From assembly GCA_040387855.1 (NCBI GenBank), contig JAZKCY010000001.1, forward strand, positions 381,857-445,856: 64,000 nucleotides of DNA, given 5' to 3'. A program made the position numbers and the translations under genes. A model generated the notes under the pieces. The model searched no databases. It was not told the DNA's origin and saw only the letters and a list, made by a program, of their open reading frames with translations. Origin of the DNA: Patescibacteria group bacterium. GTDB taxonomy: Bacteria > Patescibacteriota > Minisyncoccia > Phycocordibacterales > JAKAEA01. Each line of letters starts with the position of its first letter. The stretch's first letter is position 1. Shown here piece by piece: positions 13,945 to 64,000 of this stretch.

Positions 13945-13990
13945 TGGCGCAAATATACCGATTTCCATAACTATAGTATTCTGTATACAT

Positions 13991-18475: not shown

Positions 18476-18498
18476 TTTAACTTGGTTACATAAATAAA

Positions 18499-19482: not shown

Positions 19483-19490
19483 TTTAAGCT

Positions 19491-20237
19491 GTGAAAGGTA
19501 CTAAGCATTCAAAATTTTTATATCTCAATGCTTTTTTACCGGTTCTCTTTGTGTTTGCTGTGATGGGAAGTACAAACTATAAAATGGAAAGTGATACCGT
19601 AAACCCAGCTGGAAATCTTTCTACAAGTACAAATTACTCGCTCGGTGATACATTGGGAGAAGTTGGAACTGGTACTTCTACAAGTGCGACCTATGGGATG
19701 AATGCTGGTTTCTGGCAAATGCAGAGTGGATATATTTCTATCAGCGTAGAAGCTGATCAGGCAATGAGTTCTATTGGTGGCTTTTCTGGTGCTATTAGTA
19801 CATCCACATCCGTATGGACAGTTATTACTGATAACACTGCTGGGTATTCTTTGTTTGTACGGGCAGCTACAAGCCCTGCCCTTAAGAGTCCAGAAGATGC
19901 ATTCTTTTCAGATTATGATTTAGGAGGAGGAGCACCTCATTATGATTTTTCTGCTGATTCAAACTTATCTGTTTTTGGATTTACACCTGAGGGTGAAGAT
20001 ATTACTGATTTCTATAAGGACAATGGACTTGAGTGTAACAGTGGGGGATCAGATACTGTAGATAAATGTTGGGCTGGTTTTACTACAACAGATCAGGAAG
20101 TGTCACAAAGAGCAACATCAAATCATCCGTCTGGAACTCAAACAACATTAAAATATCGAGCAGAAGTGGGATCAAATAAACTTCAAGATGCTGGTTCATA
20201 TTCAGCTGAAATTACAGTAACAGCACTTATGCTTTAA
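19491..20237 (+). CDS. Secreted Ser/Thr-rich surface protein, WxL-domain-like (paralog 2)
   Basis: GTG start and signal peptide. SVWTVITDNTAGYSLFVRAATSPALKSPED is parallel to NLGYTLAVKASQDPAMQSAGDE in the 17822 product. Confidence 0.5.
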   Translation: MKGTKHSKFLYLNAFLPVLFVFAVMGSTNYKMESDTVNPAGNLSTSTNYSLGDTLGEVGTGTSTSATYGMNAGFWQMQSGYISISVEADQAMSSIGGFSGAISTSTSVWTVITDNTAGYSLFVRAATSPALKSPEDAFFSDYDLGGGAPHYDFSADSNLSVFGFTPEGEDITDFYKDNGLECNSGGSDTVDKCWAGFTTTDQEVSQRATSNHPSGTQTTLKYRAEVGSNKLQDAGSYSAEITVTALML

Positions 20238-20238
20238 T

Positions 20239-21609: not shown

Positions 21610-21621
21610 TAAGGCCTATAA

Positions 21622-28001: not shown

Positions 28002-29540
28002 ATGACGGACACTGAATTACAGGCACAAGCAGCACATGCACAAGGTTTAGCATACTTAGAAAAAGGTATGTTTGGTGAGGCACTATTTCATCTAAAAAAA
28101 GCAATTACATTAGTCCCTAATTATTTAGAAGCACACAACACTTTGGGGCGAGCCTATAATGAAACAGGTGACTTCGAGTTGTCTATACAAACATGTCTCC
28201 ATATACTAAGTCAAAATCCACAGGCATATTTTGTGTTACAAAATATTGCTAAATCGTATGGAGAAATGGGACGACACGCTGAAGCACTGTCGTATTATTA
28301 CAGGTATATCGCTCTTAGTCCTACTGCGGCTACAGCCTACAGTGACCTTTTTTTAACACTAAATTATCTACCAATGTCGCGTGAAGCAATGTTTGTAGAA
28401 CATTATAAGTTTCATATATTTGATAAAAATAATACAAATAGTAACTATCTGTATCAGAAAAATATTCATGATAGTAGTAAAAGAAAAATCAAAGTTGGTT
28501 ATGTTTCAGGGGATTTAAGAGAGCATCCTGTAGCGCATCTTTTTGTTCCTGTTATAAAAAATCATGACAGATCAAAATTCAATATTCATATCTATAATAA
28601 TACGCATAGTCAAGATGATGTTACCAAGAAAATAAAGAATTATGGTGATACCTGGCGCGATATACAAGCACTTTCGCATGAAGATACACTAGAACTCATT
28701 AGGTCAGATAATTTAGATATTCTTGTGGATTTATCTGGACATACTGGCAGTAATAGACTTTTGATTTTTGCAGCTCGGGCTGCTCCAATACAGGTAGCGT
28801 GGTTGGGATATATGAATACTACGGGTCTTAAAAATATGGATTATAGAATTACAGATTTTAATTTGTCAGTACCTGATTCTGAAAAATACTATACTGAAAA
28901 GTTATGGCGAGTTACAAATTCTTTTACGTTCGATCCACTTATGGAGTTGCCTGATATCGATGATTTACCAGCTTTAAAAAATGGGTTTATAACATTTGCC
29001 TCATTAAATAATTATAAAAAGATTACTTCTCATGTTTATGATGTATGGGCAGATATTTTAAGAAAGATACCAACATCACGCTTGGTATTTTCGCTCAAGG
29101 GTAATGACACGCTTAAACAGTCGGTACTTACAAAATTTGAACTAAGAGGTATTAGTTCAGATCGAATTAAAATAATTGATCAAAAATTGATTGAAGATTA
29201 TGTGAAATTTTTCAATGATATAGATATATTATTAGATCCATTTCCATTTACAGGGTGTATTACTGTATTTCATGGTCTGTGGGGTGGAGTGCCATCTATC
29301 GTTATGGAAGGAGTAACAGAATATGAGCGTAACGGTCCAACTGTTATGAAAAAAGTTGGATTAGATTCATGTATTGCACATAATCCTCAAGAATATGTAG
29401 ATATCGCAGTTTATTGGGCAAGTCATTTTGATGAATTGGCTGAATTGCGTAAAAAAATGCGTGAAAAGTTCCCTAAAAATGAGGATAAACTAGTAACAAA
29501 AGGCATTGAAGACGCATTTATAAAAATGTATAATAGATAG
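28002..29540 (+). CDS. TPR-repeat protein fused to a GT41 (O-GlcNAc-transferase-like) glycosyltransferase domain
   Basis: N-terminal TPRs. The C-terminal KIKVGYVSGDLREHPVAHLFVPV...NIHIYN block matches the OGT/GT41 catalytic-domain signature (LRVGYVSSDF.NHPTSHLM). Confidence 0.65.
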   Translation: MTDTELQAQAAHAQGLAYLEKGMFGEALFHLKKAITLVPNYLEAHNTLGRAYNETGDFELSIQTCLHILSQNPQAYFVLQNIAKSYGEMGRHAEALSYYYRYIALSPTAATAYSDLFLTLNYLPMSREAMFVEHYKFHIFDKNNTNSNYLYQKNIHDSSKRKIKVGYVSGDLREHPVAHLFVPVIKNHDRSKFNIHIYNNTHSQDDVTKKIKNYGDTWRDIQALSHEDTLELIRSDNLDILVDLSGHTGSNRLLIFAARAAPIQVAWLGYMNTTGLKNMDYRITDFNLSVPDSEKYYTEKLWRVTNSFTFDPLMELPDIDDLPALKNGFITFASLNNYKKITSHVYDVWADILRKIPTSRLVFSLKGNDTLKQSVLTKFELRGISSDRIKIIDQKLIEDYVKFFNDIDILLDPFPFTGCITVFHGLWGGVPSIVMEGVTEYERNGPTVMKKVGLDSCIAHNPQEYVDIAVYWASHFDELAELRKKMREKFPKNEDKLVTKGIEDAFIKMYNR

Positions 29541-29545
29541 TATCT

Positions 29546-29938
29546 ATGGCTATAAATGTATCGCGTAATCGAATTGACTTTAATGATATTCGTGCGGAGT
29601 CTGCTGAATTTAGAGACAGTGCAGAAAGTGTAAATGCAATTGGTAGTGCGTCAGGTGCTGAGGCAATTGATTATTCACTGGGCAATGTCGTAACAGCAAC
29701 AACAACTGGTGCAACTGTCTGGTCTGTGACAAATCCACCTGCATCAGGAAAAGCTGGGAGTTTTACCCTTATTCTTACAAACGGCGGTAGCCAGACTCAA
29801 ACATGGATGAGTGGTACAAAATGGCCAAGTGGAGCAGCGCCAACACTTACTTCGTCAGGGATAGATATACTTACCTTTTTTACGGTTGATGCTGGTACTA
29901 CATGGTATGGAGTGTTGGCAATGAGTGCTATGGCTTAA
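29546..29938 (+). CDS. Hypothetical Thr/Gly-rich protein
   Basis: 130-aa ORF, tightly spaced within the operon. No domain recognised. Confidence 0.35.
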   Translation: MAINVSRNRIDFNDIRAESAEFRDSAESVNAIGSASGAEAIDYSLGNVVTATTTGATVWSVTNPPASGKAGSFTLILTNGGSQTQTWMSGTKWPSGAAPTLTSSGIDILTFFTVDAGTTWYGVLAMSAMA

Positions 29939-29979
29939 TATTTTTTGATTATTGCACTATGTTTGGACTAGGAGCAAAA

Positions 29980-32900
29980 ATGAGAGCAATTCAACAAACG
30001 GTTGTAGCTATTATTGATAATAGTTATCTTTTTGGTTGGGGGAAAAATACTTCCGGTCAAATTGGTAATAGCTCATTAACGAGTCAATCAAGTCCTGTTG
30101 GTCTAGGTACAACTTCTGATTGGAAAATGCTCTCTGGAGCATACACATTTTCGGCGGGAATCAAGACAAATGGGACACTATGGACATGGGGCGCTGGGAT
30201 ATTCGGAACTTTGGGGGATAATACAGATTCAGTTGCAAAATCAAGTCCAATTCAAGTTGGAACACTCAGTGATTGGGATACTGTTAGTACAGCAAAATTT
30301 CATGCTTTAGCTCGTAAAACAAATGGAACGATCTGGGGATGGGGGTTTAATGGTGGTGGTCAACTTGGCCAAAATAATATTACAGATAGATCAAGCCCAG
30401 TTCAGATTGGGACTTTAGGTACTTGGACCCATATTTTTACCGGTGGTCAAATATCAGGTGCGCGAAAAAGTGATGGAACACTGTGGTCATGGGGCCGAAA
30501 CACCTATGGGGCACTTGGAATCAATGCTGCAGGAGATAGATCAAGTCCTATTCAAATTGGAACTTTGACAACATGGGATCATATGTCTTTCGGATACCGA
30601 ACTGGATTGGCAAGAAAAACCGATGGTACCATTTGGGGATGGGGCAATAACAATCTTGGACAAATTGGTAACAGTACGGTTGTTAACAGATCAAGCCCTG
30701 GACAAATCGGTACTCTTACAACCTGGAGTAGTATTCATGCAGGGAACTTACATGGTATAGGCCGAAGGTCAGATGGTACATTGTGGGGTTGGGGTTGGGC
30801 TGGAAAAGTTGGAGATAATACTGCAACCAATAAATCAAGTCCAGTACAAATTGGAACATTAAGCTCATGGCTACATGTCGCTACTGGTTATGACCACACA
30901 CTGGCAAAAAGATCAGATGGAACTATTTGGAGTTGGGGATATGCTACATACGGTCGTTTGGGGGATAATGCCACTACTGATAGATCGAGTCCTGTGCAAA
31001 TTGGAACACTAACAGAATGGGATTCCATTTTTGCAGGGAGCAGTTCTCATTCTTCGTTTGCTTTAAAAAGATATAATCTAGGTATGTTTGCATGGGGAGT
31101 AGGTTCCCTCGGTCAAATAGGAAATAATGATGTAAGTCAACAAGATAGTCCGTTACAAGTGGGTACACTCACTTCATGGGAGGGTGTAGCTGTTGGTGCT
31201 AGTACCGTGCATGCATGGAAATCAGATGGAACACTGTGGACATGGGGTAGAAACTCATACGGTCGTTTGGGAGATAACACAACCACGAACAGATCAAGTC
31301 CAGTCCAAATTGGTACCCTTAATGTATGGAAAATGGCAGCTTCAGGTACAGGCCACTCAAGTGCTGTAAGAACTAACGGAACATTGTGGTCATGGGGATC
31401 TGGTGCAAACGGAGAAATGGGAGATAACACAGCAATTTCTAAATCAAGTCCAGTACAAGTAGGAACACTCTCAATTTGGGCAGAAACGTCCGCAGGAAGT
31501 ACATTCACCGTTGCGCGTCGAACAAATAATACTATTTGGTCATGGGGTAGTAACTTGTATGGTCGTTTGGGTCAAAGCACTACTACAAATAGATCTAGTC
31601 CAGTGCAAATTGGAACATTAAGTAACTGGTCTGGTATTTCTGCAGGAGGCCAACATGCACTAGGAATAAAAACTGACGGTGGTATTTGGGCATGGGGTCT
31701 GAACACCTCTGGACAAATGGGAGATAATACTGCTGTTACAAAATCAAGTCCTGTTCGTATTGGGACTCTTACAAACTGGAAAGGTATTTCAGCGGGTGCA
31801 TCTCACAATGTTGCGTGGAAAACTGACGGATCATTATGGGCATGGGGAATAAATACAAACGGAAGATTGGGAGATAATACTACTACAACCAGATCAAGTC
31901 CTGTGCGTATTGGGACTTTATCTGATTGGGCTTCAGCTTCTGCCCAACTAGAGCATACTATTGCTCGAAAGACAGACGGTACGCTATGGGCCTGGGGAAA
32001 GGGAGACTATGGTCAGCTTGGAGATGGAATTGCACGACTTAAGAACACACCACTTCAAATCGGTACGCTAACAAACTGGGGAACTGTATCTATGGGAGCC
32101 TCACACACCGTTGCATGGAAAACAAATAATACTATTTGGGGATGGGGAATTGGGGGCCAAGTGGGAGACAATACCGCTGTTACAAGATCAAGCCCCGTAC
32201 AAATTGGAACGCTATCTACATGGCAATCTATTGATACTGGTGATTCACATACTGTAGCTATAAAGACTGACGGTACAATGTGGGCATGGGGAGCAAACAC
32301 GTCAGGCCAAGTAGGAGACAATACGAATGTTACAAAATCAAGTCCTGTACAGATTGGAACTTTAAACACATGGGCAAGTGTGTCGGCTGGAAATATTCAC
32401 TCTATTGCTCGAAAAACAGATAGTAGTATTTGGTCATGGGGACTTGGAAGTGTGGGTGCACTTGGAGATAATACAGCCACTACCAAATCAAGCCCGGTAC
32501 GAATTGGTACACTTAATACCTGGGCAAGTGTGACTGCTGGTGGAAACCACTCTCATGCAATAAAAGCTGATGGATCATTGTGGTCATGGGGTTACAATTT
32601 TTATGGGCAATTAGGCGATAGTTCAAATGTGGCTAAATCAAGTCCTGTTCGAGTTGGTACGCTCAATGATTGGTCAATTGTATCAGCAGGAATTCAGCAT
32701 TCATTAGCAATCAAAACAAACGGGACATTGTGGGCATGGGGATTTGGAACTTCCGGACAGCTTGGAGATAATACGGGTGGAACCTTCTCAAGTCCAATTC
32801 AAATTGGTACGCTCACTACTTGGGCTGGGGTGTCTGCAGGTGCAGAACACTCTCTTGGATGGAAAGCTGATGGAACTTTGTGGGCCTGGGGCTACAATGC

Positions 32901-33174
32901 ATCCGGACAATTGGGAGACGGTACATTTACTCAATATCTTAGTCCTATTCAAGTTGGTACGGTTTCTACATGGAGTACTGCTTCAGCTGGACCAAACCAC
33001 AGTGGTGCTGTGAGAGCCGATGGGACATTATGGATGTGGGGAACTCGTCTTAATGGTAGAATCGGAGATAACAACATGCCGGGTAAATCGAGCCCAATTA
33101 AAATAGGTACCATGAACGATTGGCGTACATTGGGTAACGGTCCAAATGGACTGATGAGTATTTCAATTAAATAA
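29980..33174 (+). CDS. RCC1/BLIP-II-type beta-propeller repeat protein (about 20 repeats), no signal peptide
   Basis: About 50-aa repeats (GTLWxWGxNxxGQLGDNTxxxxSSPVQIGTLxxW) occur at regular intervals. ATG at 29980 is preceded by AGGAG. The track's longer version starts at 29902. Confidence 0.7.
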   Translation: MRAIQQTVVAIIDNSYLFGWGKNTSGQIGNSSLTSQSSPVGLGTTSDWKMLSGAYTFSAGIKTNGTLWTWGAGIFGTLGDNTDSVAKSSPIQVGTLSDWDTVSTAKFHALARKTNGTIWGWGFNGGGQLGQNNITDRSSPVQIGTLGTWTHIFTGGQISGARKSDGTLWSWGRNTYGALGINAAGDRSSPIQIGTLTTWDHMSFGYRTGLARKTDGTIWGWGNNNLGQIGNSTVVNRSSPGQIGTLTTWSSIHAGNLHGIGRRSDGTLWGWGWAGKVGDNTATNKSSPVQIGTLSSWLHVATGYDHTLAKRSDGTIWSWGYATYGRLGDNATTDRSSPVQIGTLTEWDSIFAGSSSHSSFALKRYNLGMFAWGVGSLGQIGNNDVSQQDSPLQVGTLTSWEGVAVGASTVHAWKSDGTLWTWGRNSYGRLGDNTTTNRSSPVQIGTLNVWKMAASGTGHSSAVRTNGTLWSWGSGANGEMGDNTAISKSSPVQVGTLSIWAETSAGSTFTVARRTNNTIWSWGSNLYGRLGQSTTTNRSSPVQIGTLSNWSGISAGGQHALGIKTDGGIWAWGLNTSGQMGDNTAVTKSSPVRIGTLTNWKGISAGASHNVAWKTDGSLWAWGINTNGRLGDNTTTTRSSPVRIGTLSDWASASAQLEHTIARKTDGTLWAWGKGDYGQLGDGIARLKNTPLQIGTLTNWGTVSMGASHTVAWKTNNTIWGWGIGGQVGDNTAVTRSSPVQIGTLSTWQSIDTGDSHTVAIKTDGTMWAWGANTSGQVGDNTNVTKSSPVQIGTLNTWASVSAGNIHSIARKTDSSIWSWGLGSVGALGDNTATTKSSPVRIGTLNTWASVTAGGNHSHAIKADGSLWSWGYNFYGQLGDSSNVAKSSPVRVGTLNDWSIVSAGIQHSLAIKTNGTLWAWGFGTSGQLGDNTGGTFSSPIQIGTLTTWAGVSAGAEHSLGWKADGTLWAWGYNASGQLGDGTFTQYLSPIQVGTVSTWSTASAGPNHSGAVRADGTLWMWGTRLNGRIGDNNMPGKSSPIKIGTMNDWRTLGNGPNGLMSISIK

Positions 33175-33180
33175 TATTTT

Positions 33181-35124
33181 ATGGCAACCCTTACTGAAAT
33201 TCTAGAAATATCTGGAACATTAGAAAAAGCAGAAGAAATAGCTCGGCAATTAGTAGTGCAAGATCCAACATATATGTTGGATCTTCAGCTTATATTGAGC
33301 GCTCGTGGTAAAGTTGCAGAATCTAAAAAAATTATTGAAGATCTGAGTAATAAGTTTCCCAATGATCATAGAATAGCTTTCAACCAAGGATGGCACGTAT
33401 TGAATGAAGGTGATTTACAGCGGGGAATGGAACTCATAGATCGAGGAAGAAATGTGGGGGTATTTGGTTCACCCGCACTTCAAACAGATAAGCCCTTATG
33501 GGATGGGAAAAATGCCAAAGGAAAAACTATTTTACTTCGATGTGAAGGAGGATTGGGAGATGAAATTCTTAATATTCGTTTTGCTAAAGATATAGCAGAG
33601 AGAGGTGGAACAGTTATAGTAGCTTGTGATAAAGGTTTGCAAAGCGTGTTCTCTCGAGTTTCAGGCGTCGCCAAAACTATTTCTTTAGATCACATTCAAG
33701 ATGAGTACTTTGATGCATGGGTACCTGCTATGAGCGCTGTAAGAGTGTGTGGTCACACTTATGAAACACTTCCAAGTGAAGCTTATATTACTGCTTTACC
33801 AGAGAAAATTGCAGAATGGAATAAGACTGTTAATGCTGATAATGGAGTGTTGAAAGTTGGAATACGCTGGTCTGGCAATGCAGAATTTGAACATGAACAA
33901 ATGCGAAGATTCCCTTTCAAGCATATCTTGGATGTATTTGAAACTCCCAATGCTAAATTTTTTAGTTTACAACGTGATTCGGATTTGAAAGTGTTACCTC
34001 CTGAAGTTGTCGATTTAAGTGGTCTTATGAATACATGGGAAGATACAGCAGGAGTTATTGCAAACTTAGATTTAGTAATAACTTCATGTACAAGTGTTGC
34101 TCATATGGCGGCAGCAATGGGCAAAGAAACATGGATTATTGTTCCACTAATGCCATATTATACGTGGGCTATGCCTGGGAATAAAACTCCATGGTATAAA
34201 AGCGTGACGTTGTATAGACAAGAATCAGACACAAACTGGGAAGCCTCATTTATAAAGGTACGACAAGCATTAGAAGAATCGACAACTCAAGTAATACGTA
34301 CTAGTATTGATCCAATGCAAAATCACACAAAAAAGACGCTCCATTTCGTAGCAGGACTACCGCGTTCTGGTAGTACTATGCTCATTAGTTTGCTTGCCCA
34401 AAATCCTACTATTTTCGGTGCACCCGTTTCAGGTTTGGCTGGTATTGTAAACGGAGTAAATACTAATTGGGATAAAATAGAATTTCATAAGGAAGTTCCT
34501 AATGAAGAAGCAAAGATGTATACCTTGCGAGCTATTTTAGATAGCTATCATGCTGCAACATCTAAACCAATTATCCTAGATAAAGAGCGTCATTGGATTC
34601 GTTATATTTTATTGCTTGAAAAGTTATTAGACAGAAAAGTGAAAGTAATTGTTCCTGTTCGTCCTATTGCAGAAATACTCACTTCATTTGAAGTATTGCG
34701 ACAAAAGAATCCATTAACTCTCACAATGGTGGATGAAGTACTTGGTCCGAAATCTACATTATCTACACGTTGTGATTACTTTATGAATGAAGAAGGTCCT
34801 GTAGGGAGTTGTATCAATTATACTCGTGATGCTGTCATTTCCGGCTTGAGTGATCGTTTATTATTTGTGGATTACAATAAATTTATTGCTAATCCCGAGC
34901 GTGATCTAAAACGAATATATAGTTTCTTAGAAATCCCTTATTTTGAGCATGATTTGCATAACATAAAGCAGCTTACTATGAGTGATGATTCAATATGGAA
35001 GTATCCAGGATTACATGATGTTCGATCTGTCGTATCAAAAATCTCTGCTGATCCTATAAGTGTCCTTGGTCCTGAGCTTGTAGCAAAGTTTAGTCAGGGT
35101 GAACCATGGGAAAATTGGACATAA
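33181..35124 (+). CDS. Tri-partite enzyme: TPR-like N-terminus, GT9 (heptosyltransferase-like) glycosyltransferase, and a C-terminal sulfotransferase domain
   Basis: GT9 motifs KTILLRCEGGLGDEI and DLVITSCTSVAHMAAAMGKETWII. The C-terminus has a PAPS-binding-type LPRSGSTML P-loop (5'-PSB) and a downstream basic motif. Confidence 0.6.
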   Translation: MATLTEILEISGTLEKAEEIARQLVVQDPTYMLDLQLILSARGKVAESKKIIEDLSNKFPNDHRIAFNQGWHVLNEGDLQRGMELIDRGRNVGVFGSPALQTDKPLWDGKNAKGKTILLRCEGGLGDEILNIRFAKDIAERGGTVIVACDKGLQSVFSRVSGVAKTISLDHIQDEYFDAWVPAMSAVRVCGHTYETLPSEAYITALPEKIAEWNKTVNADNGVLKVGIRWSGNAEFEHEQMRRFPFKHILDVFETPNAKFFSLQRDSDLKVLPPEVVDLSGLMNTWEDTAGVIANLDLVITSCTSVAHMAAAMGKETWIIVPLMPYYTWAMPGNKTPWYKSVTLYRQESDTNWEASFIKVRQALEESTTQVIRTSIDPMQNHTKKTLHFVAGLPRSGSTMLISLLAQNPTIFGAPVSGLAGIVNGVNTNWDKIEFHKEVPNEEAKMYTLRAILDSYHAATSKPIILDKERHWIRYILLLEKLLDRKVKVIVPVRPIAEILTSFEVLRQKNPLTLTMVDEVLGPKSTLSTRCDYFMNEEGPVGSCINYTRDAVISGLSDRLLFVDYNKFIANPERDLKRIYSFLEIPYFEHDLHNIKQLTMSDDSIWKYPGLHDVRSVVSKISADPISVLGPELVAKFSQGEPWENWT

Positions 35125-35139
35125 TCCAATACGTTAAGT

Positions 35140-36459
35140 ATGAAACATTTCCATACAAATATTCAAGGATGGTTTTTTGCAGAATATTTTTTTGCTGACA
35201 TTGTTAAAAATGCACCTGATGGTGCGCATTTTGTTGAAGTTGGAAGTTGGAAAGGAAAGAGTGCTGTTTTTATGGCAGTTGAGATTGCCAACAGTGGAAA
35301 GCGAATAAAATTTGATTGTATTGACCATTGGAAGGGCTCGAAAGATACATACTTAGAAAACGAAGATCAAGCTGTTAAAGACGGTAATCTTTTTGAGGTT
35401 TTTAAAGAGAATATTGAGCCAGTACAAGAGTACATAAATGCTATCGATGGAGATAGCGCTGCTACAGCTTCACGTTATGCAGACGGATCTCTTGATTTTA
35501 TCTATATAGATGCTGCACATGATTATGAAAGCGTAAAAAGAGATATTAAGGCTTGGTTACCCAAATTAAAGTCAGATGGAGTCATTGCTGGGGATGATTT
35601 TACTGAAGCATTCCCTGGATTAGTTCAAGCTGTGCAAGAAATATTCCCTCAAGGATTATCAGTAATTCACCCTACATGGGTTGTGGATCGACGTACAATA
35701 AATTCAGAACAAGGATGTTCGATAATCTTTAGATGCCATACTGGTGATAATGTTCATGATGGAGTACGATTTGCTGGGGTAAGTAAAACAGAACTTGTTG
35801 TTAAGTGTTTTAAATCTATAGTGTCGGCAGCAGAAATTGTAAACCGTGATATTGAAATTGTGATTGTAGATGATCATTCAGAAAAGAAATGTATTGAAGC
35901 ACTTGAAGATGTGCTAACAACTTCACGACATCCACATAAAATAATTCATGTAACAGACACAGGTAATAAAGCATCGTTACGAGAATCATTCGAATATGCT
36001 CGTGATTATGGTAAAGAGCTTGTTTATTTTGTGGAGGATGATTATTTACACCTCCCTACATCATTACTGGAAATGATCGAGCAACAAACTGAGTTTAAAA
36101 ATAACTTAAACAATAAAGAAGTGGCATTTTATCCCGTTGATTATCCAGATCGATATCAACCTCAAGGAATATATCAATCAATGATAGTTCTTGGCAAACA
36201 CCGTCACTGGAGAACTACTCGACACTCAACACTTACTTTTTTTTCTTCTCGGAAAGCAGTTTTTGAATATTGGGAATTATTTGAAAAAATGTGGCAAGGG
36301 GAGGGTAATTTTGTAGATGAAGATCAAACGGTAAATAAACTGTGGGGTCCAGATATTCAGCTCTTTTCTCCAATTCCAACACTCGCTATTCATATGCAAT
36401 TCGAAGAACACAAACCTCCTTTTGTTGATTGGCAAAAGTATTGGGATGCTATACAGTAA
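35140..36459 (+). CDS. Fusion: class I SAM-dependent methyltransferase (Methyltransf_24/TylF-MycF/CmcI-like) plus GT-A-fold glycosyltransferase domain
   Basis: The N-terminus has VEVGSWKGKSAVFMA and DFIYIDAAHDYESV. The C-terminal ~250 aa (IVIVDDHS...YFVEDDYLH...HW(R)T...LAIHM) is paralogous to 37046..37816 and 37813..38580. Confidence 0.6.
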   Translation: MKHFHTNIQGWFFAEYFFADIVKNAPDGAHFVEVGSWKGKSAVFMAVEIANSGKRIKFDCIDHWKGSKDTYLENEDQAVKDGNLFEVFKENIEPVQEYINAIDGDSAATASRYADGSLDFIYIDAAHDYESVKRDIKAWLPKLKSDGVIAGDDFTEAFPGLVQAVQEIFPQGLSVIHPTWVVDRRTINSEQGCSIIFRCHTGDNVHDGVRFAGVSKTELVVKCFKSIVSAAEIVNRDIEIVIVDDHSEKKCIEALEDVLTTSRHPHKIIHVTDTGNKASLRESFEYARDYGKELVYFVEDDYLHLPTSLLEMIEQQTEFKNNLNNKEVAFYPVDYPDRYQPQGIYQSMIVLGKHRHWRTTRHSTLTFFSSRKAVFEYWELFEKMWQGEGNFVDEDQTVNKLWGPDIQLFSPIPTLAIHMQFEEHKPPFVDWQKYWDAIQ

Positions 36460-36463
36460 CACT

Positions 36464-37033
36464 ATGAAATTAAATCTTGGCTGTGGCTTCAATAAACTGG
36501 ATGGATATATAAATGTAGATAATTCGGCTGTATGTAAGCCTGATCAGGTGTTTGATATAGAATCGACCCCATGGCCTTGGCAAGATAGTTCGATTGACGA
36601 GATCAGATTAGATCATGTTTTGGAGCACATTGGTGTGGACCCAAAAACATATATTTCAGTATGGAAAGAAATATGGCGCGTATCAAAACCCAATGCTCAG
36701 ATTTTTATTCGAGTTCCACACTGGAGGCATGAAAACTTTGCACATGATCCTACACATGTACGTCCTATTACTCCTGTTGGTATTGCCATGTTTGATCAGC
36801 TACGTAACAGGGAAGACGAAAAGCGTGGAGGTCAAGAAACAAAGCTTGGACTTATGTATGCAATAGATGTTGCTATAGAACGTGTTGAATATGTGTTTGT
36901 CCCCGAAATACAGCAAGCTTTAGAAAAGAAATTTATATCTCAAGAAAAAGCTTCTTCACTTATGGAACATGAAAATAATGTATGTCAGGAAATTAAAATC
37001 GGTGTGCGAGTTATGAAGCCTTGTCGAGGCTAG
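36464..37033 (+). CDS. Class I SAM-dependent methyltransferase (Methyltransf_11-like)
   Basis: MKLNLGCGFNKLDGYINVD is the glycine-rich SAM-binding motif I. Confidence 0.6.
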   Translation: MKLNLGCGFNKLDGYINVDNSAVCKPDQVFDIESTPWPWQDSSIDEIRLDHVLEHIGVDPKTYISVWKEIWRVSKPNAQIFIRVPHWRHENFAHDPTHVRPITPVGIAMFDQLRNREDEKRGGQETKLGLMYAIDVAIERVEYVFVPEIQQALEKKFISQEKASSLMEHENNVCQEIKIGVRVMKPCRG

Positions 37034-37045
37034 CATCGATAAACT

Positions 37046-37816
37046 ATGAAATTAGATATTATTTTACGGACACATTCTTTAGGTAATGTGCATCCAGAAA
37101 AAAGAGTAATGACGGATTCTAAGGAAGAAATGCTTATTAAATGTGTTTTTTCTTTAATAAAATCAATAGATACTATCAAAGGTGCTCATGATATAAAGCT
37201 AGCAATAATAGATGATCACTCTTCTGAATTATGTATGCAGAAGCTTAAAAAAATGGTGAGTGATCTTAAATATCCCTATATATTAATACATCTTGAAGAT
37301 ACGGGAAATAATGCTTCTTTAAAAAAGTGTTATGAATATGCGCATGATAATGCGCGTGATGTTATTTATTTTGTAGAGGATGATTATCTACATAATCCGA
37401 GCGCTCTAGTAGAGATGATTGAATCATATGAGCTGTTCCAATCCAATTTAGGGGGAACAGATATCGCATTATTGCCGTATGATGATCCCGATAATTATAA
37501 ACCAGGTTGGATTCATCCCAGCCGAATAGTATTGAGCAAAAATCGCTATTGGAGAACAAATACAATTACAAATGGTACCTTCATGATATCAAAGAAAGTA
37601 CTATTGGATTTTTGGGATACATTTATGGCATTTACTCAATATGGTACAGGTTTGAAGTCTAATGAATCTGCAACAATAAATAAAATTTGGAGTGAGTCTG
37701 TTCGCCTTTTTACTCCTATGCCAAGCTTGGCAATTCATATGCATCATACATTGAGAATGTCTCCATTTATTGATTGGAAAAGTTTGTGGGATTCAATGGA
37801 TACATCACATTTATGA
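37046..37816 (+). CDS. GT-A-fold glycosyltransferase (DXD = EDDY), tandem paralog 2
   Basis: MKLDIILRTHS...IIDDHS...YFVEDDYLH...RYWRTN...LAIHMH. Its TGA overlaps the next gene's start (ATGA). Confidence 0.55.
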   Translation: MKLDIILRTHSLGNVHPEKRVMTDSKEEMLIKCVFSLIKSIDTIKGAHDIKLAIIDDHSSELCMQKLKKMVSDLKYPYILIHLEDTGNNASLKKCYEYAHDNARDVIYFVEDDYLHNPSALVEMIESYELFQSNLGGTDIALLPYDDPDNYKPGWIHPSRIVLSKNRYWRTNTITNGTFMISKKVLLDFWDTFMAFTQYGTGLKSNESATINKIWSESVRLFTPMPSLAIHMHHTLRMSPFIDWKSLWDSMDTSHL

Positions 37817-38580
37817 AATTAGATATTATTTTACGAACTCATTCTACAGGTAACTTGCGACCAGGCACACGTTTTCTACAAGTACCAAAAGAACAGTTGG
37901 TTTTAACATGTACCACTTCACTCATAAATTCTGCGAATCTCGTTTCGCCAGATGACCACGAAATAAAAATAGTAATAGTAGATGATCACTCAACAGAATC
38001 ATGCGTTGCTGGCTTGAAAAGAATTTTAGCAACTTCAAAACATCCAACACAACTAATTCAGATAGAACAACCGGGGCATGCTGCATCGCTTATGGCTTGC
38101 TATGAATATGGTAGAGATCATGCTCGAGATGTTATCTATTTTATTGAAGATGATTACCTTCACTTTCCGTCTGCGATCTCTGAAATGATTGAAATGTACG
38201 ATTGGGTAAAGGCTAGCCTGGGTGATAAAGAAGTTGCGCTCTTAGCAAATGATGATCCTGATAGTTATCGTAATCCTTGGATGGAACCAGCAAGGATTGT
38301 ATTAGGTAAGTATCGTCATTGGAGAACAAACTTGTTTTCTACTAGCTCATTTTGGTTTTCAAAAAAAACACTGCTTAAGTATTGGGACATTTATATGCGG
38401 CATACACATTACGGGGAACATGAAGTGATTCATGAGGGTACGACTGTCGATAGAGTATGGCGACATTCTGTTCAATTGTTTACTCCAATACCATCATTAG
38501 CTGTTCATATGGAATACACAGACAATATTGCTCCATTTGTTTATTGGGAAGGCCTGTGGAAAAGTATTATAGTGCCGTAG
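37813..38580 (+). CDS. GT-A-fold glycosyltransferase (DXD = EDDY), tandem paralog 3
   Basis: MKLDIILRTHSTGN...IVIVDDHS...YFIEDDYLH...RHWRTN...LAVHME. Confidence 0.55.
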   Translation: MKLDIILRTHSTGNLRPGTRFLQVPKEQLVLTCTTSLINSANLVSPDDHEIKIVIVDDHSTESCVAGLKRILATSKHPTQLIQIEQPGHAASLMACYEYGRDHARDVIYFIEDDYLHFPSAISEMIEMYDWVKASLGDKEVALLANDDPDSYRNPWMEPARIVLGKYRHWRTNLFSTSSFWFSKKTLLKYWDIYMRHTHYGEHEVIHEGTTVDRVWRHSVQLFTPIPSLAVHMEYTDNIAPFVYWEGLWKSIIVP

Positions 38581-40973: not shown

Positions 40974-42041
40974 ATGTTCAAAAATTTCCGACAAAGACTT
41001 ACAAAAATGTTTAGCAATGAGATCGGCATCGATCTTGGAACTGCTAATACATTGGTCTATTTACGTGGTCGTGGAATTGTAATTAATGAACCATCAGTAG
41101 TTGCAATCAATCAGAAGACAGGAACTGTAGTTGCAATTGGAACACAAGCAAAAGATATGCTTGGACGTACTCCTCAGCATATTATCGCAGTAAAACCGCT
41201 TGTAGACGGAGTTATATCAGATTTTGAGGTGACAGAAGAAATGATTACCTATCTACTAAACAAAGCGCAGAAAGATACAAAAAAGTTTCTCGGTCCAAAA
41301 GTAGTGGTGGGTGTGCCATCAGGAATTACCAATGTTGAGACACGAGCAGTTCGAGATGCTACAAAAAACGCAGGAGCTAGAGAAGTATATATAGTTGAAG
41401 AGCCTATGGCCGCTGCTGTTGGTATTCGCTTGCCTGTAATGGAACCAGTTGGAAATATGATTATTGATATTGGTGGTGGAACAACCGATATTGCCGTTAT
41501 ATCACTTGGTGGTGTTGTTGTTTCAAAAAATCTAAAAATAGCAGGTGATAAGCTTAATGCAGATATCACTACCTATATCCGAAGTGAATTTAAAATTTTA
41601 ATTGGTGAAAAGACTGCAGAGCAAATTAAAATTACAATTGGCGCAGTATTGCCGGGAGAAACTCCCATGGAATCTATAATTAAGGGAAGAGATCTCGTTA
41701 CTGGTTTGCCACGTGAAGTAGTTATTACAGATGCTGATATCCGAGAAGCAACATCTCAATCTATAGAGACATTGCTTGAAGCTTCAAAAGAAGTTCTTGA
41801 AACTACACCTCCAGAAATTATTGCTGATGTCATGCACCGAGGGATTTACCTTACTGGTGGAGGGGCTCTTATAAAGGGACTTCATGTGTTACTTGCAGAC
41901 TTTCTGAAAATTCCTGTTCATGTGGCAGAGGATCCTCTTACTGCTGTTGCCCGTGGAACTGGTATTATTTTAGAAAATATACCAAAATATCAAGATATTT
42001 TGATTCAAAACGAAGATGATCTACCAGCCGCGAGATACTAA
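40974..42041 (+). CDS. mreB: Rod-shape protein MreB (paralog 2, in the mreBCD-mrdA operon)
   Basis: GIDLGTANTLVY. Full-length actin-fold. Confidence 0.9.
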   Translation: MFKNFRQRLTKMFSNEIGIDLGTANTLVYLRGRGIVINEPSVVAINQKTGTVVAIGTQAKDMLGRTPQHIIAVKPLVDGVISDFEVTEEMITYLLNKAQKDTKKFLGPKVVVGVPSGITNVETRAVRDATKNAGAREVYIVEEPMAAAVGIRLPVMEPVGNMIIDIGGGTTDIAVISLGGVVVSKNLKIAGDKLNADITTYIRSEFKILIGEKTAEQIKITIGAVLPGETPMESIIKGRDLVTGLPREVVITDADIREATSQSIETLLEASKEVLETTPPEIIADVMHRGIYLTGGGALIKGLHVLLADFLKIPVHVAEDPLTAVARGTGIILENIPKYQDILIQNEDDLPAARY

Positions 42042-58404: not shown

Positions 58405-59973
58405 ATGAAAAAAGCGACATTATCTATTTTAGCTCTAGCAACTATTCTCTTTGGAATAACCATTATAGAAGTACATGCTCAAACAGCGGACGCAACAGTT
58501 ACAGTGACTACACCCGGACCAATTCAACCAGGGCAGTATATAGATGTGTCATGGAGTCTTTCTGAAGAAGATCACAGATCAAGAGATTGGATAGGTCTTT
58601 ATAAATCAGGTGCAACAAACTCATCATATTTAAATTGGAAGTATGCTGAGGATCCACAAGGCTCAGCTTCTCTATATGTACCTCGAGAATCAGGTACCTA
58701 TGAAATCCGGTATATGTCACGTAATGGATTTACGAGTATTGCCAAAAGTTCTAGCTTTACTGTAGGGACGGGAACTGATGGTGGAAATAATAACGGAGGC
58801 AATAATGGCAATGCAACAACAACATCTGGGTATTCTTTAACATTGTCATCTACAAATATTCAATCTGGACAACCGCTTCAAGTATCATGGAAAACTCCCG
58901 ACGATGTTTCTATTTCAAGAGATTGGATTGCTGTGTTTAAAAGTAATTCACAAAATAATAATTATCTCGATTGGGCATATACTTCAGGTAATCGAGAGGG
59001 AACACTGAATCTCTACCCACCAAAAGAAGCTGGATCATATGAGGTTCGATATTTAAAAAAGAATGGGTACACCAGTGTGGCTGAAGTAGCGTTCACTATT
59101 ACTGTTGTAGGAACGAATCCGGATAATGGCAATGGAACTACTACTCCAAATCCCAATCCTGGAACAAATAGTTATAGTGTAACTGCATCTCCGTCTGGAA
59201 ATATATCACCGGGTGCTACTGTCACAATTAGTTGGACAGCACCTCAGGACACAAAGATCTCAAGAGATTGGGTGGGGATTTTTGGTGTTGGTACATCAAA
59301 CCGACAATACTATGAATGGAGTTATACAAATGGAAGAACAGGATCGGTAACACTTAAAGCACCTACAACTGAAGGGGATTATGAAGTAAGATATTTAAAA
59401 AATAATGGATATACAAGTGTTGCAAAGAGTGCTCCATTTAAAATACAACTCGGTAGTATCCCAAATAATAAAAAGATTATAGCTTTTGGTGATAGCTTAA
59501 CTGCTGGTTTTGGAGCTACTGAAGGGAATGATTATGTATCTGTGCTGTCTCGAAGAATTAATCAGCCTATAGAAAATGCTGGAGTCATAGGTGATACAAC
59601 TGCTGAGGCGCTTACTCGCTTGGAAACAAGTGTTTTAAGTAAAAATCCTGATGTTGTCATAATTCTTTTGGGAGGTAATGATGTAATTCAGCGTGTGCCT
59701 CGATCTGAAACATTTGAAAATATTAAAACCATAATAGAAAGAATTAAAGCACGAGGTGCCGATGTTGTTTTAGTGGGAATTCATCAGACTATCTACAATT
59801 CAAATTACAGATCAATAGCCAATCAAACAGATTCGTATTTTGTTCCTGAAGTATTGAGTGGGATTTTAGGACGTAATGATTTAACCGCAGATCTTATTCA
59901 TCCAAATGATGCAGGGTATGTGATAGTCGCTCAGAGAATTGATCCTGTAGTGCGAGTTGCTTTAGCACAATAA
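58405..59973 (+). CDS. Secreted SGNH/GDSL hydrolase with three tandem ~100-aa N-terminal repeat domains
   Basis: Signal peptide. Three copies of (ISRDWIxxFK...YLxWxY...GxYEVRYLKxNGYTSVA). The C-terminus has GDSL (AFGDSLTAG), GGNDV and DLIHPNDAGY motifs. Confidence 0.7.
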   Translation: MKKATLSILALATILFGITIIEVHAQTADATVTVTTPGPIQPGQYIDVSWSLSEEDHRSRDWIGLYKSGATNSSYLNWKYAEDPQGSASLYVPRESGTYEIRYMSRNGFTSIAKSSSFTVGTGTDGGNNNGGNNGNATTTSGYSLTLSSTNIQSGQPLQVSWKTPDDVSISRDWIAVFKSNSQNNNYLDWAYTSGNREGTLNLYPPKEAGSYEVRYLKKNGYTSVAEVAFTITVVGTNPDNGNGTTTPNPNPGTNSYSVTASPSGNISPGATVTISWTAPQDTKISRDWVGIFGVGTSNRQYYEWSYTNGRTGSVTLKAPTTEGDYEVRYLKNNGYTSVAKSAPFKIQLGSIPNNKKIIAFGDSLTAGFGATEGNDYVSVLSRRINQPIENAGVIGDTTAEALTRLETSVLSKNPDVVIILLGGNDVIQRVPRSETFENIKTIIERIKARGADVVLVGIHQTIYNSNYRSIANQTDSYFVPEVLSGILGRNDLTADLIHPNDAGYVIVAQRIDPVVRVALAQ

Positions 59974-60936: not shown

Positions 60937-60940
60937 AAAT

Positions 60941-60971
60941 AAAAAAGCCTCACATATATGAGGCTTTTTTA
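60941..60971. terminator. Bidirectional rho-independent terminator aaaaagcctca-tatata-tgaggcttttt
   Basis: 11-bp stem flanked by an A-run and a T-run. Lies between the small ORF and the KGG gene. Confidence 0.7.
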
Positions 60972-60987
60972 TTATGCAGATATAAGC

Positions 60988-61176
60988 TTATGCTTGTAAT
61001 CTGCGTGATCTACTTCGTCGTCCACCTTTTCTACCAGCTTCTCGAGCTTCATCTGATGTAAATTCGTGTGCAGTACCTCTTTCGTGAGCTGCCTTGCCTC
61101 CACGGCTGGCAATTTCTTTCTGTTTTTCTTTATCCATACTTGCGAAGCCTCGTCTGCTCGTATTATTTCCTGCCAT
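60988..61176 (-). CDS. KGG-repeat general stress protein (YciG/con-10-like)
   Basis: 62 aa. RGFASMDKEKQKEIASRGGKAAHERG and GRKGG repeats. Confidence 0.65.
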   Translation of the reverse strand: MAGNNTSRRGFASMDKEKQKEIASRGGKAAHERGTAHEFTSDEAREAGRKGGRRSRSRRLQA

Positions 61177-61292: not shown

Positions 61293-61739
61293 TTATCGCG
61301 TAACACTAATTATTTCTCCCAATTCTGCACTCGGTGCTGTTAGTGTAATTCTTTTTGTCGTTGCATCTTGCAGAATAGTATAGCCAGTTGTGTATTCTGT
61401 CGACGTGATAGAGCCATTAGATGGGTCAACCGGTATGTCAGTCATGTAATTTGGAATAATACAGTCACGAATATCATACGCTGATGAACTAATGATTGTT
61501 GCAGTGGCTGGTAATGCTCCTTCAGCACAGGTAAACGTGCCTTTATTGTCTGCGATATTTTGGCCTACAGCATTTAATACCGCATTTACATTACTGATTC
61601 GTTGAGTATTACGGGCCTGAGCAAATTGTCTGCCGGGATTTACAGCAACGAGTACAACTGTAGCTAATACAGCTATGATGCCAATGACAACTAATACTTC
61701 TATTAGAGTAAAACCCTGTTTTTTATGTGTGTATTTCAT
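61293..61739 (-). CDS. Type IV pilin (prepilin with N-terminal methylation motif)
   Basis: MKYTHKKQGFTLIEVLVVIGIIAVLATVV is the class III signal G|FTLIE. Confidence 0.8.
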   Translation of the reverse strand: MKYTHKKQGFTLIEVLVVIGIIAVLATVVLVAVNPGRQFAQARNTQRISNVNAVLNAVGQNIADNKGTFTCAEGALPATATIISSSAYDIRDCIIPNYMTDIPVDPSNGSITSTEYTTGYTILQDATTKRITLTAPSAELGEIISVTR

Positions 61740-61783: not shown

Positions 61784-62176
61784 TTATTTAGAATTATGAA
61801 AGATTCTATCTTGTTGCTGGATTAGTAAAGTATCAGATGAAATAGTAGTCATAAATTCTGAGTATGAAAGGGTACTAGATGCAATTGTTGTATACGTATA
61901 TGTATCCAGTTCGGTCGAAATACTACTGATGTAACATGTCTTTGAAAACACAGGATAATATTCGTCTCCAGAATATATAGCATTAGACTGTAATTGCATT
62001 TGTGCTATTTCCGAACATGATAGTGCAGCAAATAAAGTTTCTTGCTTGTCGAGGTTAATTAAATAGGTCTGTTGAAGAAAACGGGTTCTAAGTACAAGAC
62101 TCAGACTAGCAACTGAAAAAAATCCACTGATAAGAATAACAGATAAGAGTGCGACAAATCCTGAAGTATATTTCAT
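61784..62176 (-). CDS. Pilin-like minor pilus component (non-canonical N-terminus)
   Basis: MKYTSGFVALLSVILISGFFSV hydrophobic N-terminus. Lies within the pilin operon. Confidence 0.4.
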   Translation of the reverse strand: MKYTSGFVALLSVILISGFFSVASLSLVLRTRFLQQTYLINLDKQETLFAALSCSEIAQMQLQSNAIYSGDEYYPVFSKTCYISSISTELDTYTYTTIASSTLSYSEFMTTISSDTLLIQQQDRIFHNSK

Positions 62177-62361
62177 GTCTCACTAAGCATTAAAAAATTG
62201 GTTTCTAATTCTTGTGTGATCCTTACATCCATATACTGAGAAAAAGTGCTAAAAGACACCAGGGAGAAGCATGATACGGTAATTAGACCTGAAAGCAATG
62301 CACTATATATGATAGTTTCGATAAGTGTAAAGCCAGATCGGTTTTTTATAGTAGGTATCAT
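62173..62361 (-). CDS. Minor (pseudo)pilin, 62 aa
   Basis: NRSGFTLIETIIYSALLSGL is the prepilin cleavage/methylation motif. Confidence 0.6.
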   Translation of the reverse strand: MIPTIKNRSGFTLIETIIYSALLSGLITVSCFSLVSFSTFSQYMDVRITQELETNFLMLSET

Positions 62362-63631
62362 AATAATGTTGTGATCGTGGTCCCTTCGCAGTCAATATCT
62401 TTGGGTGCTTGCATATATTCTTTTACAGGTACAGACATGACCTGGCTTGTTGTTGCCACATCTATTTTTGAAATATGATTACGGGCAGTTGTAAGGCTTG
62501 CATAGATACTTGAGTTTAGAATACAAAATCCAGTAATAGTACTTTTGAAGTATGCTGAGGTGATAAGTGTGGGTGAAAGAGGATTTGAACTATCAACCAT
62601 AACAAACTCGGGATTTTGTGGAAGTGTAGATCGCTTTCTACCAATATATAAAATATCTCCAGCTCGAATAATTTTCTGTGAATCTTCATTGCCGCTAAAT
62701 GATATAGATGAAACTTCTAAAATACTTGAAGGATTAGAAACATTTAGAATTATTACGTCTTTTGTATTACCAGAAGTTGCGAGATAGGCATAGGGCCAAT
62801 CTACTGTTATGTCATTTATATTGTGGTTTATTTCACGTGAGCCAAGCCACACTGGTTGCGATGGGTTTTCTACATCGAAAATATGAAATTCTCTTCCTGC
62901 GGTACGGTGAGTACCAATATATACTCGAGATCGATAATACTGAATACTTATGGCATCAGGATATGAGCCACTTACACCAGGGAGTGTTGCCTTCGAAATA
63001 CTTGTTGCTGACAATGGTTCGGCAATATCTACTATGTGAAACTGGGTAGTTGTTCCTGTAGCTGCTATAAACATATGTGATTGAGTCACGTCAACAGCTC
63101 GGATGCCTTGGTTTAAATGTATCTTAATAGCTTGAGAAGTATCTGAAATGTCTTTTGGAAATATATAAAGACTTGGTTCTGTTGTGCTTGATACCAATGC
63201 TCCTACATATACATGATCATTCAGTACATCGAGCGATGTAGCATTTGGGACAGTTATTTCTTTGAATGTAATTGAATGGGACTGCTGAATAGGAATCCCT
63301 CCGCAGTCATCTCCATAATCCATGAGGGTTTGTGTGTCTGCATGAAGTACTTGTGCATTAATTGCGACAAGACACGGTGTGGAGTACGATAAATTTTTCC
63401 AGGATGTTGTAGCTGTTTCATTCAGAATAAGATTTTTAATAGTTTGAGTGCTCTTTACGAGAGTTTGTAGTTGAGCTCTTAACGTAGTAGTTCTTTCCAC
63501 TGATGTATATGTAGTGCTTAATGATAGTGTCACTATTGAAACTGTAAACGCAGAAAGGGCTAATGCAATTGTTAATTCAATAAGCATACTACCTCTCGTC
63601 AAAGCTTTTTTTGAGAAATTGTAATTCTTCA
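62358..63631 (-). CDS. Prepilin-type protein fused to an LVIVD-repeat beta-propeller domain (candidate pilus-tip adhesin)
   Basis: Leader MKNYNFSKKALTRG | SMLIELTIALAL. Five or more LVIVD-like blades (HVYVGAL, HMFIAATG..FHIVDIAEP, RVYIGTH..FHIFDVENP, YAYLATSG..VIILNVSNP, ILYIGRK..FVMVDSSNP). The track's longer ORF starts at 63713. Confidence 0.6.
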
Positions 63632-63762
63632 TGAGTAATTGAAACCTCTGTTGAGGCGAGATTTTGAAGTGCACTGAAATAAAGCGTAGTATCGACCCAA
63701 ATTCCTGATGCACACAAGATCATAATAATTCCCAAGGTGATAGCTAATTCTAGTACTGACAT
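63586..63762 (-). CDS. Possible small pilin-like ORF (58 aa)
   Basis: MSVLELAITLGIIMILCASGI is a hydrophobic N-terminus but has no Gly before the helix. It overlaps the next gene's start by 45 nt. Below the track cut-off. Confidence 0.2.
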
Positions 63763-63786: not shown

Positions 63787-64000
63787 TCAATGCTTAATAT
63801 TCTGAGTGATGCTGTAGAGTGGAGTGAGCATTGAAAGTGCAACAAAACCTACAATTAGTCCCATTACGATCATAAGTAGCGGCTCAAGCATTCTTGAATA
63901 TGCTTTTGAAAGAGATTCAACCTGCTCATCCAATAACTCAGCACAATATATACATGTCTCTGGAAGTGTTCCTGCCATTTCTGCTGTTGCGAGTAATGTA
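63787..64000 (-). CDS. pilC: Type IV pilus assembly platform protein PilC/GspF family, C-terminal end (partial; the 5' end lies beyond the window)
   Basis: LEPLLMIVMGLIVGFVALSMLTPLYSI is the conserved C-terminal TM segment of GspF/PilC. The ORF is open to the window end. Confidence 0.6.
   Translation of the reverse strand, partial: TLLATAEMAGTLPETCIYCAELLDEQVESLSKAYSRMLEPLLMIVMGLIVGFVALSMLTPLYSITQNIKH

Follow-up and report, generated by a model that had tools for sequence, protein, structure and literature searches.

The 64,000-nucleotide stretch analyzed here (the window; positions 381,857 to 445,856 of contig JAZKCY010000001.1 from a Patescibacteria group bacterium, assembly GCA_040387855.1) carries near its end a gene for a prepilin whose N-terminal helix is followed by a predicted β-propeller of LVIVD repeats. 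We consider it probable that this gene specifies a modular minor type IV pilin of the priming/tip complex, with the propeller displayed for binding. This view is built on a processing motif that is invariant across the family, a confident structure model, and a gene order shared by some 60 loci of different species. A role as tip adhesin is suggested by the analogy with modular pilins and PilY1, by the binding defect of a mutant in the saccharibacterial pilin PilX2, and by the place of the gene in a set of minor pilins that resembles GspH/I/J/K.

A conserved prepilin leader

The propeller pilin is encoded on the minus strand, a correction to the initial annotation, which had placed the gene at 62358-63631. 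The stop end of that interval holds and its start does not, since translation from 63631 is out of frame and meets 32 stops; the ATG at 63632 yields the N-terminus described there, MKNYNFSKKALTRG/SMLIELTIALAL (slashes mark predicted cleavage sites), and a 424-aa product that begins MKNYNFSKKALTRG/SMLIELTIALALSAFTVSIV. The longest open reading frame (ORF) at the locus (62358..63713, minus) starts at a GTG and would specify 451 aa. This start was rejected, as its 27 extra residues have no counterpart in the homologues.

The leader MKNYNFSKKALTRG is short and basic, ends in Gly at −1, and is followed by Ser at +1, Glu at +5 and an uncharged hydrophobic stretch. A class III signal had been read from these features, and the family bears it out. 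In an alignment of 76 members (A1), the Gly(−1) column holds Gly in all 64 non-gap rows and the Glu(+5) column (Glu19) holds Glu in all 70; the 12 rows without the Gly are gene calls from an internal Met, or fragments. Leaders of the homologues span 4-36 aa and are likewise Gly-terminated. The invariance of both columns lifts the signal above chance, and the in-frame, Gly-ending leaders of the homologues favor the start at 63632 over the internal Met16. A Shine-Dalgarno-like AGAGGT at 63591..63596 (minus) simply spells the Arg13-Gly14 codons. General models recognize few of these N-termini: Pfam N_methyl (PF07963) matches 9 of the 76 members and TIGR02532 matches 2, and the N-terminus of the family profile aligns with Geobacter PilA-N (E=0.0015). 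Since 12 of the 76 gene calls are truncated like the deposited call for the window protein, class III signals of this family appear to be systematically under-annotated.

Structure model

AlphaFold2, run with alignment A1, returned a full-length model with a mean predicted local distance difference test (pLDDT) score of 91.4 and a predicted template modeling (pTM) score of 0.83. It comprises a long α1 helix, a small head and a propeller (Table 1), the propeller standing where other pilins have their globular head. The predicted head consists of very short strands (81-83, 88-91 and 95-98) and a small helix (aa 81-105). Its two cysteines, C87 and C110, lie in the motifs TPC and GxDCGG and are nearly invariant in the family and invariant in alignment A2. 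When the N-terminal module was modeled alone (aa 1-124), pLDDT fell to 71.6 overall and to about 50 for the head, with only the helix confident, and Foldseek returned zero matches for this isolated model with its low-confidence head. Poor folding in isolation and the absence of a structural match suggest that the head is vestigial and probably packs on the propeller.

The propeller itself is modeled with high confidence. AlphaFold2 places 27 strands between aa 122 and 423, which we assign to seven four-stranded blades; the strand at 122-126 would complete the last blade in a velcro closure. At least five blades had been predicted from the sequence, so the propeller stands and the count is corrected to seven. 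The assignment to LVIVD repeats is likewise confirmed by profile: PF08309 reaches 26.5 bits at aa 274-309 (E=4e-6), above its gathering score of 20.2, and this is the only repeat that passes the hidden Markov model (HMM) by itself. Across the family, 71 of 76 members match PF08309 (best 2.1e-33) and 42 match Pfam Beta_propel. Four canonical LVIVD strands can be read in the sequence (FHIVDIAEP, FHIFDVENP, VIILNVSNP and FVMVDSSNP), together with three degenerate ones (ITFKEITVPN, LYIFPKDIS and ISKIDVATT). Against the Protein Data Bank (PDB), Foldseek retrieved generic 7- and 8-bladed propellers (E ~1e-9 to 1e-7; TM score ~0.5 when normalized to the whole query), among them the β-TrCP WD40 domain, kelch and designer propellers, and the Bacteroides B12-binding lipoproteins BT1954 and BT2095.

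Conservation in A1, read on the strand map of the model, is uneven around the ring. Near-invariant residues cluster in blades 3-5 (E248, H250, E267, N269, H270, N271, N273, T286, S287, D317 and R332), where the conserved A-B and C-D loop residues share one face, and the variable blades are 1, 6 and 7. This polar patch could serve as a contact surface for the other minor pilins or for the protein's own hairpin, bind a metal, or act in catalysis. The propellers of 97% of the members are acidic (median isoelectric point 4.9, net charge −11), which argues against unspecific DNA binding.

Family size and distribution

A homologue search across 5.8 billion proteins gave 100 relatives. The identical protein is V4519_02470, from a Patescibacteria metagenome-assembled genome (MAG) with a 981,549-bp contig, and the next best relatives are of similar length and 30-41% identical. 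A profile search of 1.84 billion cluster representatives found 7,177 at E<=1e-30, with LVIVD proteins that are not pilins counted among them. The top 150 comprise more than 100 full-length proteins (400-560 aa) that share the architecture, the others being giant multi-propeller proteins. Two relatives appear to be elaborated versions of the propeller pilin: P0101 (1998 aa) opens with a class III signal (MNGNKG/FLLVE) that is followed by many LVIVD propeller units, and P0143 (810 aa) adds C-terminal Ser/Thr-rich repeats to the common architecture.

All named sources in the propeller-pilin family are Patescibacteria. Record titles mention Kaiser-, Taylor-, Lipton-, Zambryski-, Giovannoni-, Sung-, Vogel-, Doudna- and Colwellbacteria, as well as Paceibacteria and Minisyncoccia. 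Many assemblies are labeled 'uncultured Candidatus Saccharibacteria', an unconfirmed and perhaps generic label. Two loci with the full Patescibacteria-type operon (L021 and L029) come from MAGs labeled Pseudobdellovibrionaceae and Gammaproteobacteria and are probably mis-binned.

Operon organization

Gene context was examined with our own phmmer and regular-expression script in 66 related loci, drawn from homologue-bearing contigs and from species-representative genomes (64 loci). About 60 of them, from different species, share one gene order: a GspE/PilB-type ATPase (~370-430 aa), a platform protein (~350-400 aa), a minor pilin with Glu5 (~150-180 aa), the propeller pilin, a second Glu5 minor pilin (~155 aa), a minor pilin without Glu5 (~135 aa), and a well conserved pilin (~155 aa). 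In most of these loci, the T2SSE and T2SSF genes lie directly upstream. The ATPase matches GspE (1.9e-122) and PilB (2.6e-114) far more strongly than PilT (5.9e-51), also matches ComGA (6.7e-76), and lacks the N-terminal domains of GspE/PilB; the platform protein also matches ComGB (1.2e-34).

This arrangement resembles the H-I-J-K core order of minor pilins in the type II secretion system (T2SS), Com and type IVa pilus (T4aP) systems, with the propeller pilin at the I position. NCBIfam models point the same way: among the 76 members they matched ComGE in 28 (best 5.1e-6), PilV in 9 (3.4e-7), XpsI in 5 and GspI in 3, all below the curated cut-offs. The ComGE, PilV and GspI/XpsI models gave no match on the window protein itself. 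Because these matches fall below the cut-offs and lean on the helix, the likeness to GspI/PilV/ComGE is one of resemblance and not of membership; with the isolated head model uninformative, the class assignment draws on sub-threshold HMM matches and gene order. The gene that follows the propeller pilin has weak ComGF/GspJ matches.

The window ends within the platform gene, and Table 1 lists the genes from there to a KGG-repeat gene. The operon had been described as comprising a major pilin, two minor pilins and pilC. The end of pilC and the major-like pilin are in place, whereas the minor pilins differ in detail, one being a headless stump and the other lacking Glu5. The stump, of 62 aa, has weak ComGD, GspJ and ComGF matches and is a truncated orthologue of the GspJ/ComGF-like pilin of 105-180 aa that fills the same slot elsewhere. 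The 130-aa protein without Glu5 has 47 phmmer matches among the ORFs of the related loci. The 148-aa pilin is the best conserved pilin of the operon (TIGR02532 4.8e-8; GspG 3.9e-7; E=1e-65 to its L001 orthologue) and is likely the major subunit. ATGA stop/start overlaps connect the propeller pilin to the 62-aa gene and the latter to the 130-aa gene, suggesting coupled translation of the three, and the hairpin after the KGG-repeat gene likely marks the end of the transcription unit.

A 57-aa ORF occupies the slot where most relatives have the first Glu5 minor pilin. Its sequence resembles a pilin helix, and its frame contains a stop nine codons before the ATG. It was rejected as a bona fide pilin, because a leader and the Gly are missing and the 66 related loci contain no homologue; it would be either a relic or no gene at all.

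Table 1. Features of the propeller-pilin gene and its operon (window coordinates; AF2, AlphaFold2)
Feature	Positions	Strand	Remarks
Platform gene, 3' end (PilC/GspF/ComGB type)	63787..64000	minus	PF00482 T2SSF 6.6e-9; runs off the window
Doubtful 57-aa ORF (MSVLELAITLG...)	63592..63762	minus	Slot of the relatives' ~150-aa Glu5 minor pilin
Propeller prepilin, coding sequence	62358..63632	minus	424 aa plus stop
Class III (prepilin) leader MKNYNFSKKALTRG	63591..63632	minus	Predicted cleavage after Gly14
Mature N-terminal α1 helix, aa 15-71	63420..63590	minus	57 residues; Glu19 = +5; AF2
Pilin head, probably vestigial, aa 72-121	63270..63419	minus	Short hairpin, small helix, Cys87...Cys110
Predicted seven-bladed LVIVD β-propeller, aa 122-424	62361..63269	minus	AF2 pLDDT 93-98 over most of the domain
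Blades 3-5, aa 210-347	62592..63005	minus	Near-invariant polar residues in A-B and C-D loops
LVIVD repeat passing Pfam alone, aa 274-309	62706..62813	minus	Blade 4; 26.5 bits vs 20.2
62-aa minor pilin (MIPTIKNRSG/FTLIE)	62173..62361	minus	Leader and α1 only; N_methyl 1.7e-4
130-aa minor pilin-like protein without Glu5 (MKYTSG/FVALL...)	61784..62176	minus	GspK/PilX/ComGG-like cap position
148-aa canonical pilin (KKQG/FTLIEVLVVIGIIAVLA)	61293..61739	minus	GFTLIE; N_methyl 4.4e-9
Small KGG-repeat protein gene	60988..61176	minus	After the pilin genes here and in L001 and L003
Strong terminator-like hairpin	60938..60973	minus	16 pairs, then a T run; directly after the KGG-repeat gene

Comparison with known pilins and propellers

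The window protein combines an N-terminal pilin module with a domain that is not specific to pili, as modular pilins do. PilB (vWA) and PilC (lectin) of Streptococcus sanguinis, CofB, TcpB and ComZ likewise carry a module grafted onto a pilin and are modeled at the tip. The grafted modules differ, and in S. sanguinis PilB the pilin module has a complete small pilin fold, in contrast to the head reduced to a hairpin here. PilB is a proven adhesin, and Raynaud et al. argue that a bulky module fits best at the filament tip, since PilB modeled in the filament body produces steric clashes (PMC8179133).

The same architecture has been listed before. In Dataset S1 of Raynaud et al. 2021 (PMC8179133), IPR012902 occurs together with one to thirteen copies of IPR013211 in 30 proteins, which fall into seven architectures; one of these also contains IPR019198. 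IPR013211 is the entry for the LVIVD repeat (PMC10210494); the survey described it as a motif 'of unknown function', and several of its representative modular pilins came from candidate phyla (PMC8179133). These proteins are identical in architecture to the window protein and were listed without structure, operon context, minor-pilin position or family size. Since N_methyl is found in only 9 of the 76 members, most of the present family would escape an N_methyl-based survey. Our literature search on LVIVD together with pilin returned no paper linking the two.

A propeller-bearing minor pilin encoded among other pilins is also known from TM7x (Nanosynbacter lyticus, Saccharibacteria), where PilX2 carries a heptabladed RCC1 propeller and is a proposed tip adhesin; its deletion lowers the share of hosts bound to 4.6%, versus 10.6%, and pili still form (PMC11623550). 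The likeness, drawn for PilX2 by description only, has its bounds. No RCC1 domain occurs among the Pfam matches of the 76 members, PilX2 reportedly lacks a predicted PilD signal, in contrast to the invariant Gly(−1) and Glu(+5) here, and the TM7x pilins lie in a separate locus. TM7x locus one contains PilD (PMC11623550).

PilY1/PilC provides the other parallel. It is a β-propeller protein tied to the PilV-PilW-PilX complex, primes assembly and acts as a tip adhesin (PMC7541494; PMC8179133). PilY1 is itself no pilin, and its attachment to the tip complex is non-covalent; the propeller described here is fused to the pilin module. The comparison with PilY1 suggested in the initial annotation yields no family relationship: the PilY1/PilC domain was absent from the Pfam matches of the 76 members, and PilY1 was absent from the top 50 Foldseek PDB matches. 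The PilY1 propeller belongs to the Pfam family PF05567. The corresponding entry in the modular-pilin survey is IPR008707 (PMC8179133).

Relations to the GspH-I-J-K, ComGD-GG and FimU-PilVWX sets, and to GspI/PilV/ComGE within them, lie in sub-threshold α1 matches and in a series of four minor pilins whose last member lacks Glu5. GspK and ComGG, both without Glu5, are proposed tip subunits (PMC8727766). Known GspI/PilV/ComGE proteins differ from the propeller pilin in that they measure ~100-190 aa and have no propeller, and the window genome differs from these sets in having no H-like member and a truncated J-like one.

Proposed function and alternative explanations

In the mechanism that we propose, a prepilin peptidase encoded elsewhere would cut the propeller prepilin after Gly14, and the mature protein would join the J-like pilin and the K-like pilin without Glu5 in the membrane. 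This complex would prime polymerization of the 148-aa pilin and then stay at the distal tip, the only place with room for the ~300-residue propeller, which there would serve as the binding module of the filament towards a component of the host-cell surface. The propeller pilin would thus be the covalent counterpart of PilV plus PilY1. The additional surface-type modules of P0143 and P0101, and the variability of blades 1, 6 and 7, count for an outward-facing function.

Several observations weigh against this explanation. No prepilin peptidase was found in the 64-kb window or within 10 kb in the 66 related loci by a heuristic screen of the window and the locus flanks (regular expressions plus hydropathy for a polytopic GxGDxK protein). 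The operon is comG-like and has no retraction ATPase, so that the filament may serve DNA uptake rather than attachment. On the window protein, both PF07963 and TIGR02532 stay below threshold, and the +1 residue is Ser. The call deposited at NCBI (P0001; V4519_02470, 'hypothetical protein') has 409 aa, starts at Met16 (ATG at 63587) and omits the leader. The lineage of the window also looks eroded, with the H-like minor pilin absent or a relic and the J-like one reduced to its 62-aa stump. Finally, a conserved polar patch on blades 3-5 would be unusual for the binding site of a host-specific adhesin.

It is possible, if unlikely, that the operon builds a Com-type competence pseudopilus in which the propeller is a DNA receptor at the tip or a cell-wall device, serving nucleotide scavenging rather than attachment. 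Its comG-like layout would suit that function, with a short ATPase (ComGA 6.7e-76), a short platform protein (ComGB 1.2e-34) and five pilins; PilT and PilM/N/O were found neither in the operon nor within 10 kb of the related loci, and the operon has no PilD. ComGE is the commonest match of the pilin module, and genes for RecR, RmuC and DnaB lie near the operon in L001 and L003. Patescibacteria are not known to make nucleotides, which also counts for competence. The acidity of the propeller speaks against a DNA receptor, for the known DNA-binding pilins use electropositive surfaces. Furthermore, the ATPase and platform protein fit the GspE/PilB and GspF/PilC models better than ComGA/ComGB, no comEA or comEC was seen beside the operon in the L001 and L003 loci, and the major pilin comes last in this operon, versus first in comG.

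Alternatively, the propeller could be mainly an assembly part whose polar face docks the minor pilins or senses, for example, a metal ion, thereby priming or regulating the filament; we give this a small chance. The gene is fixed in the operon of some 60 species, conservation peaks on a single face of blades 3-5 and not in variable loops, and translation appears coupled to that of the next two pilins. PilY1 and the minor pilins prime T4aP assembly (PMC7541494), and the PilY1 propeller binds calcium (PMC11623550). In PilY1, however, priming and adhesion do not exclude each other, and TM7x forms T4P-2 filaments without its propeller pilin (PMC11623550). The variable blades and the extra C-terminal modules of relatives also suggest outward-facing functions.

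The most far-reaching interpretation holds that the propeller pilin is an obligatory core part of the main Paceibacteria-type filament, a fusion of a PilV-like nucleator with a PilY1-like tip protein in a single polypeptide, whose near-invariant His/Glu/Asp/Asn patch on blades 3-5 is metal-dependent or catalytic. We regard this as rather improbable. If true, the tip would carry an enzyme, or a receptor for a universal ligand on the host envelope, and the variable blades would set the host range; a large part of the uncultivated bacteria would then engage their hosts by a new mechanism.

That the protein is no filament subunit is very unlikely. Its class III-like N-terminus would then anchor a surface propeller, an enzyme or binding protein comparable to the substrate-binding proteins of the archaeal bindosome. 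A vestigial head that folds poorly alone would fit such an anchor, the near-invariant His, Glu, Asp and Asn may belong to an active or metal site, and searches with the family profile also pick up thousands of LVIVD surface proteins that are not pilins. Glu5, however, is invariant in the family; this residue matters for filament packing and is not known to be needed for mere anchoring. The fixed place in a minor-pilin set that includes a partner without Glu5, and the ATGA coupling to the adjoining pilins, also argue for a filament subunit.

Scarcely credible, finally, is an untranslated leader with translation from Met16 and an unprocessed signal-anchor protein. In its favor are the 409-aa deposited protein beginning MLIELTIAL, the AGAGGT three bases upstream of that ATG, and a start at or close to this position in 12 of the 76 family gene calls. 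Against it, 64 of 76 homologues have an in-frame leader with an invariant Gly end, AGAGGT coincides with the Arg13-Gly14 codons, initiation at 63632 produces a short basic leader of the usual prepilin kind, and in related loci the gene normally overlaps the one before it.

Other genes in the window

A second propeller protein is encoded at 29902..33174 (+): 1090 aa with ~18 RCC1 repeats (RCC1-like domain, E=5e-249) in several propellers and no class III signal. Its gene sits in a cluster of GT41/TPR, sulfotransferase, methyltransferase and GT2 genes (28002..38580), and RCC1 is the propeller type of PilX2. In the same glycosylation cluster, two adjacent genes at 37046..38580 (+) have near-identical starts (MKLDIILRTHS...), suggesting a tandem duplication.

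Five genes with N-terminal hydrophobic segments at 17822..26688 (+) may form a surface-protein cluster; the product of the last has 1688 aa and no Pfam match, and 20239..21609 (+) gives weak, sub-threshold matches to fn3 and to the N-terminal domain of purple acid phosphatase. A secreted-looking protein of 522 aa (58405..59973, +) joins a C-terminal GDSL/SGNH hydrolase domain (4e-23) to N-terminal repeats that match eukaryote-type SKICH (1.4e-13), with three similar repeat units visible in its sequence. The 584-aa ORF at 12337..14091 (−) unites a Cro/C1-type helix-turn-helix domain (aa 93-144) with an EPSP-synthase/MurA-type domain (aa 157-571) and is an unusual fusion or an over-extended ORF. 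Two MreB-like genes, at 14377..15390 and 40974..42041, were recognized by eye only.

Biological implications

That a module can be grafted onto a pilin, that a propeller can sit at a pilus tip and that the prepilin-plus-LVIVD architecture exists are all established. What we add is a confident seven-blade model with a predicted vestigial head and, in the same family, an invariant processing motif that annotation appears often to hide. We also place the propeller pilin at a fixed I-position in a compact E-F-H-I-J-K-G operon of some 60 species and give the size of its family. The general idea being known, the advance lies in scope and detail and not in principle. The propeller-bearing pilin is no oddity of a single genome, its relatives amounting to thousands of sequence clusters, LVIVD proteins that are not pilins included. 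Standard annotation conceals the family, as N-methylation models miss most members and gene callers often cut the leader.

Cultivated Patescibacteria live attached to other microbes. The propeller pilin, whose structure is well predicted, is a candidate for the host-binding part of the filament and, as such, bears on host recognition in the large Paceibacteria/Parcubacteria branch.

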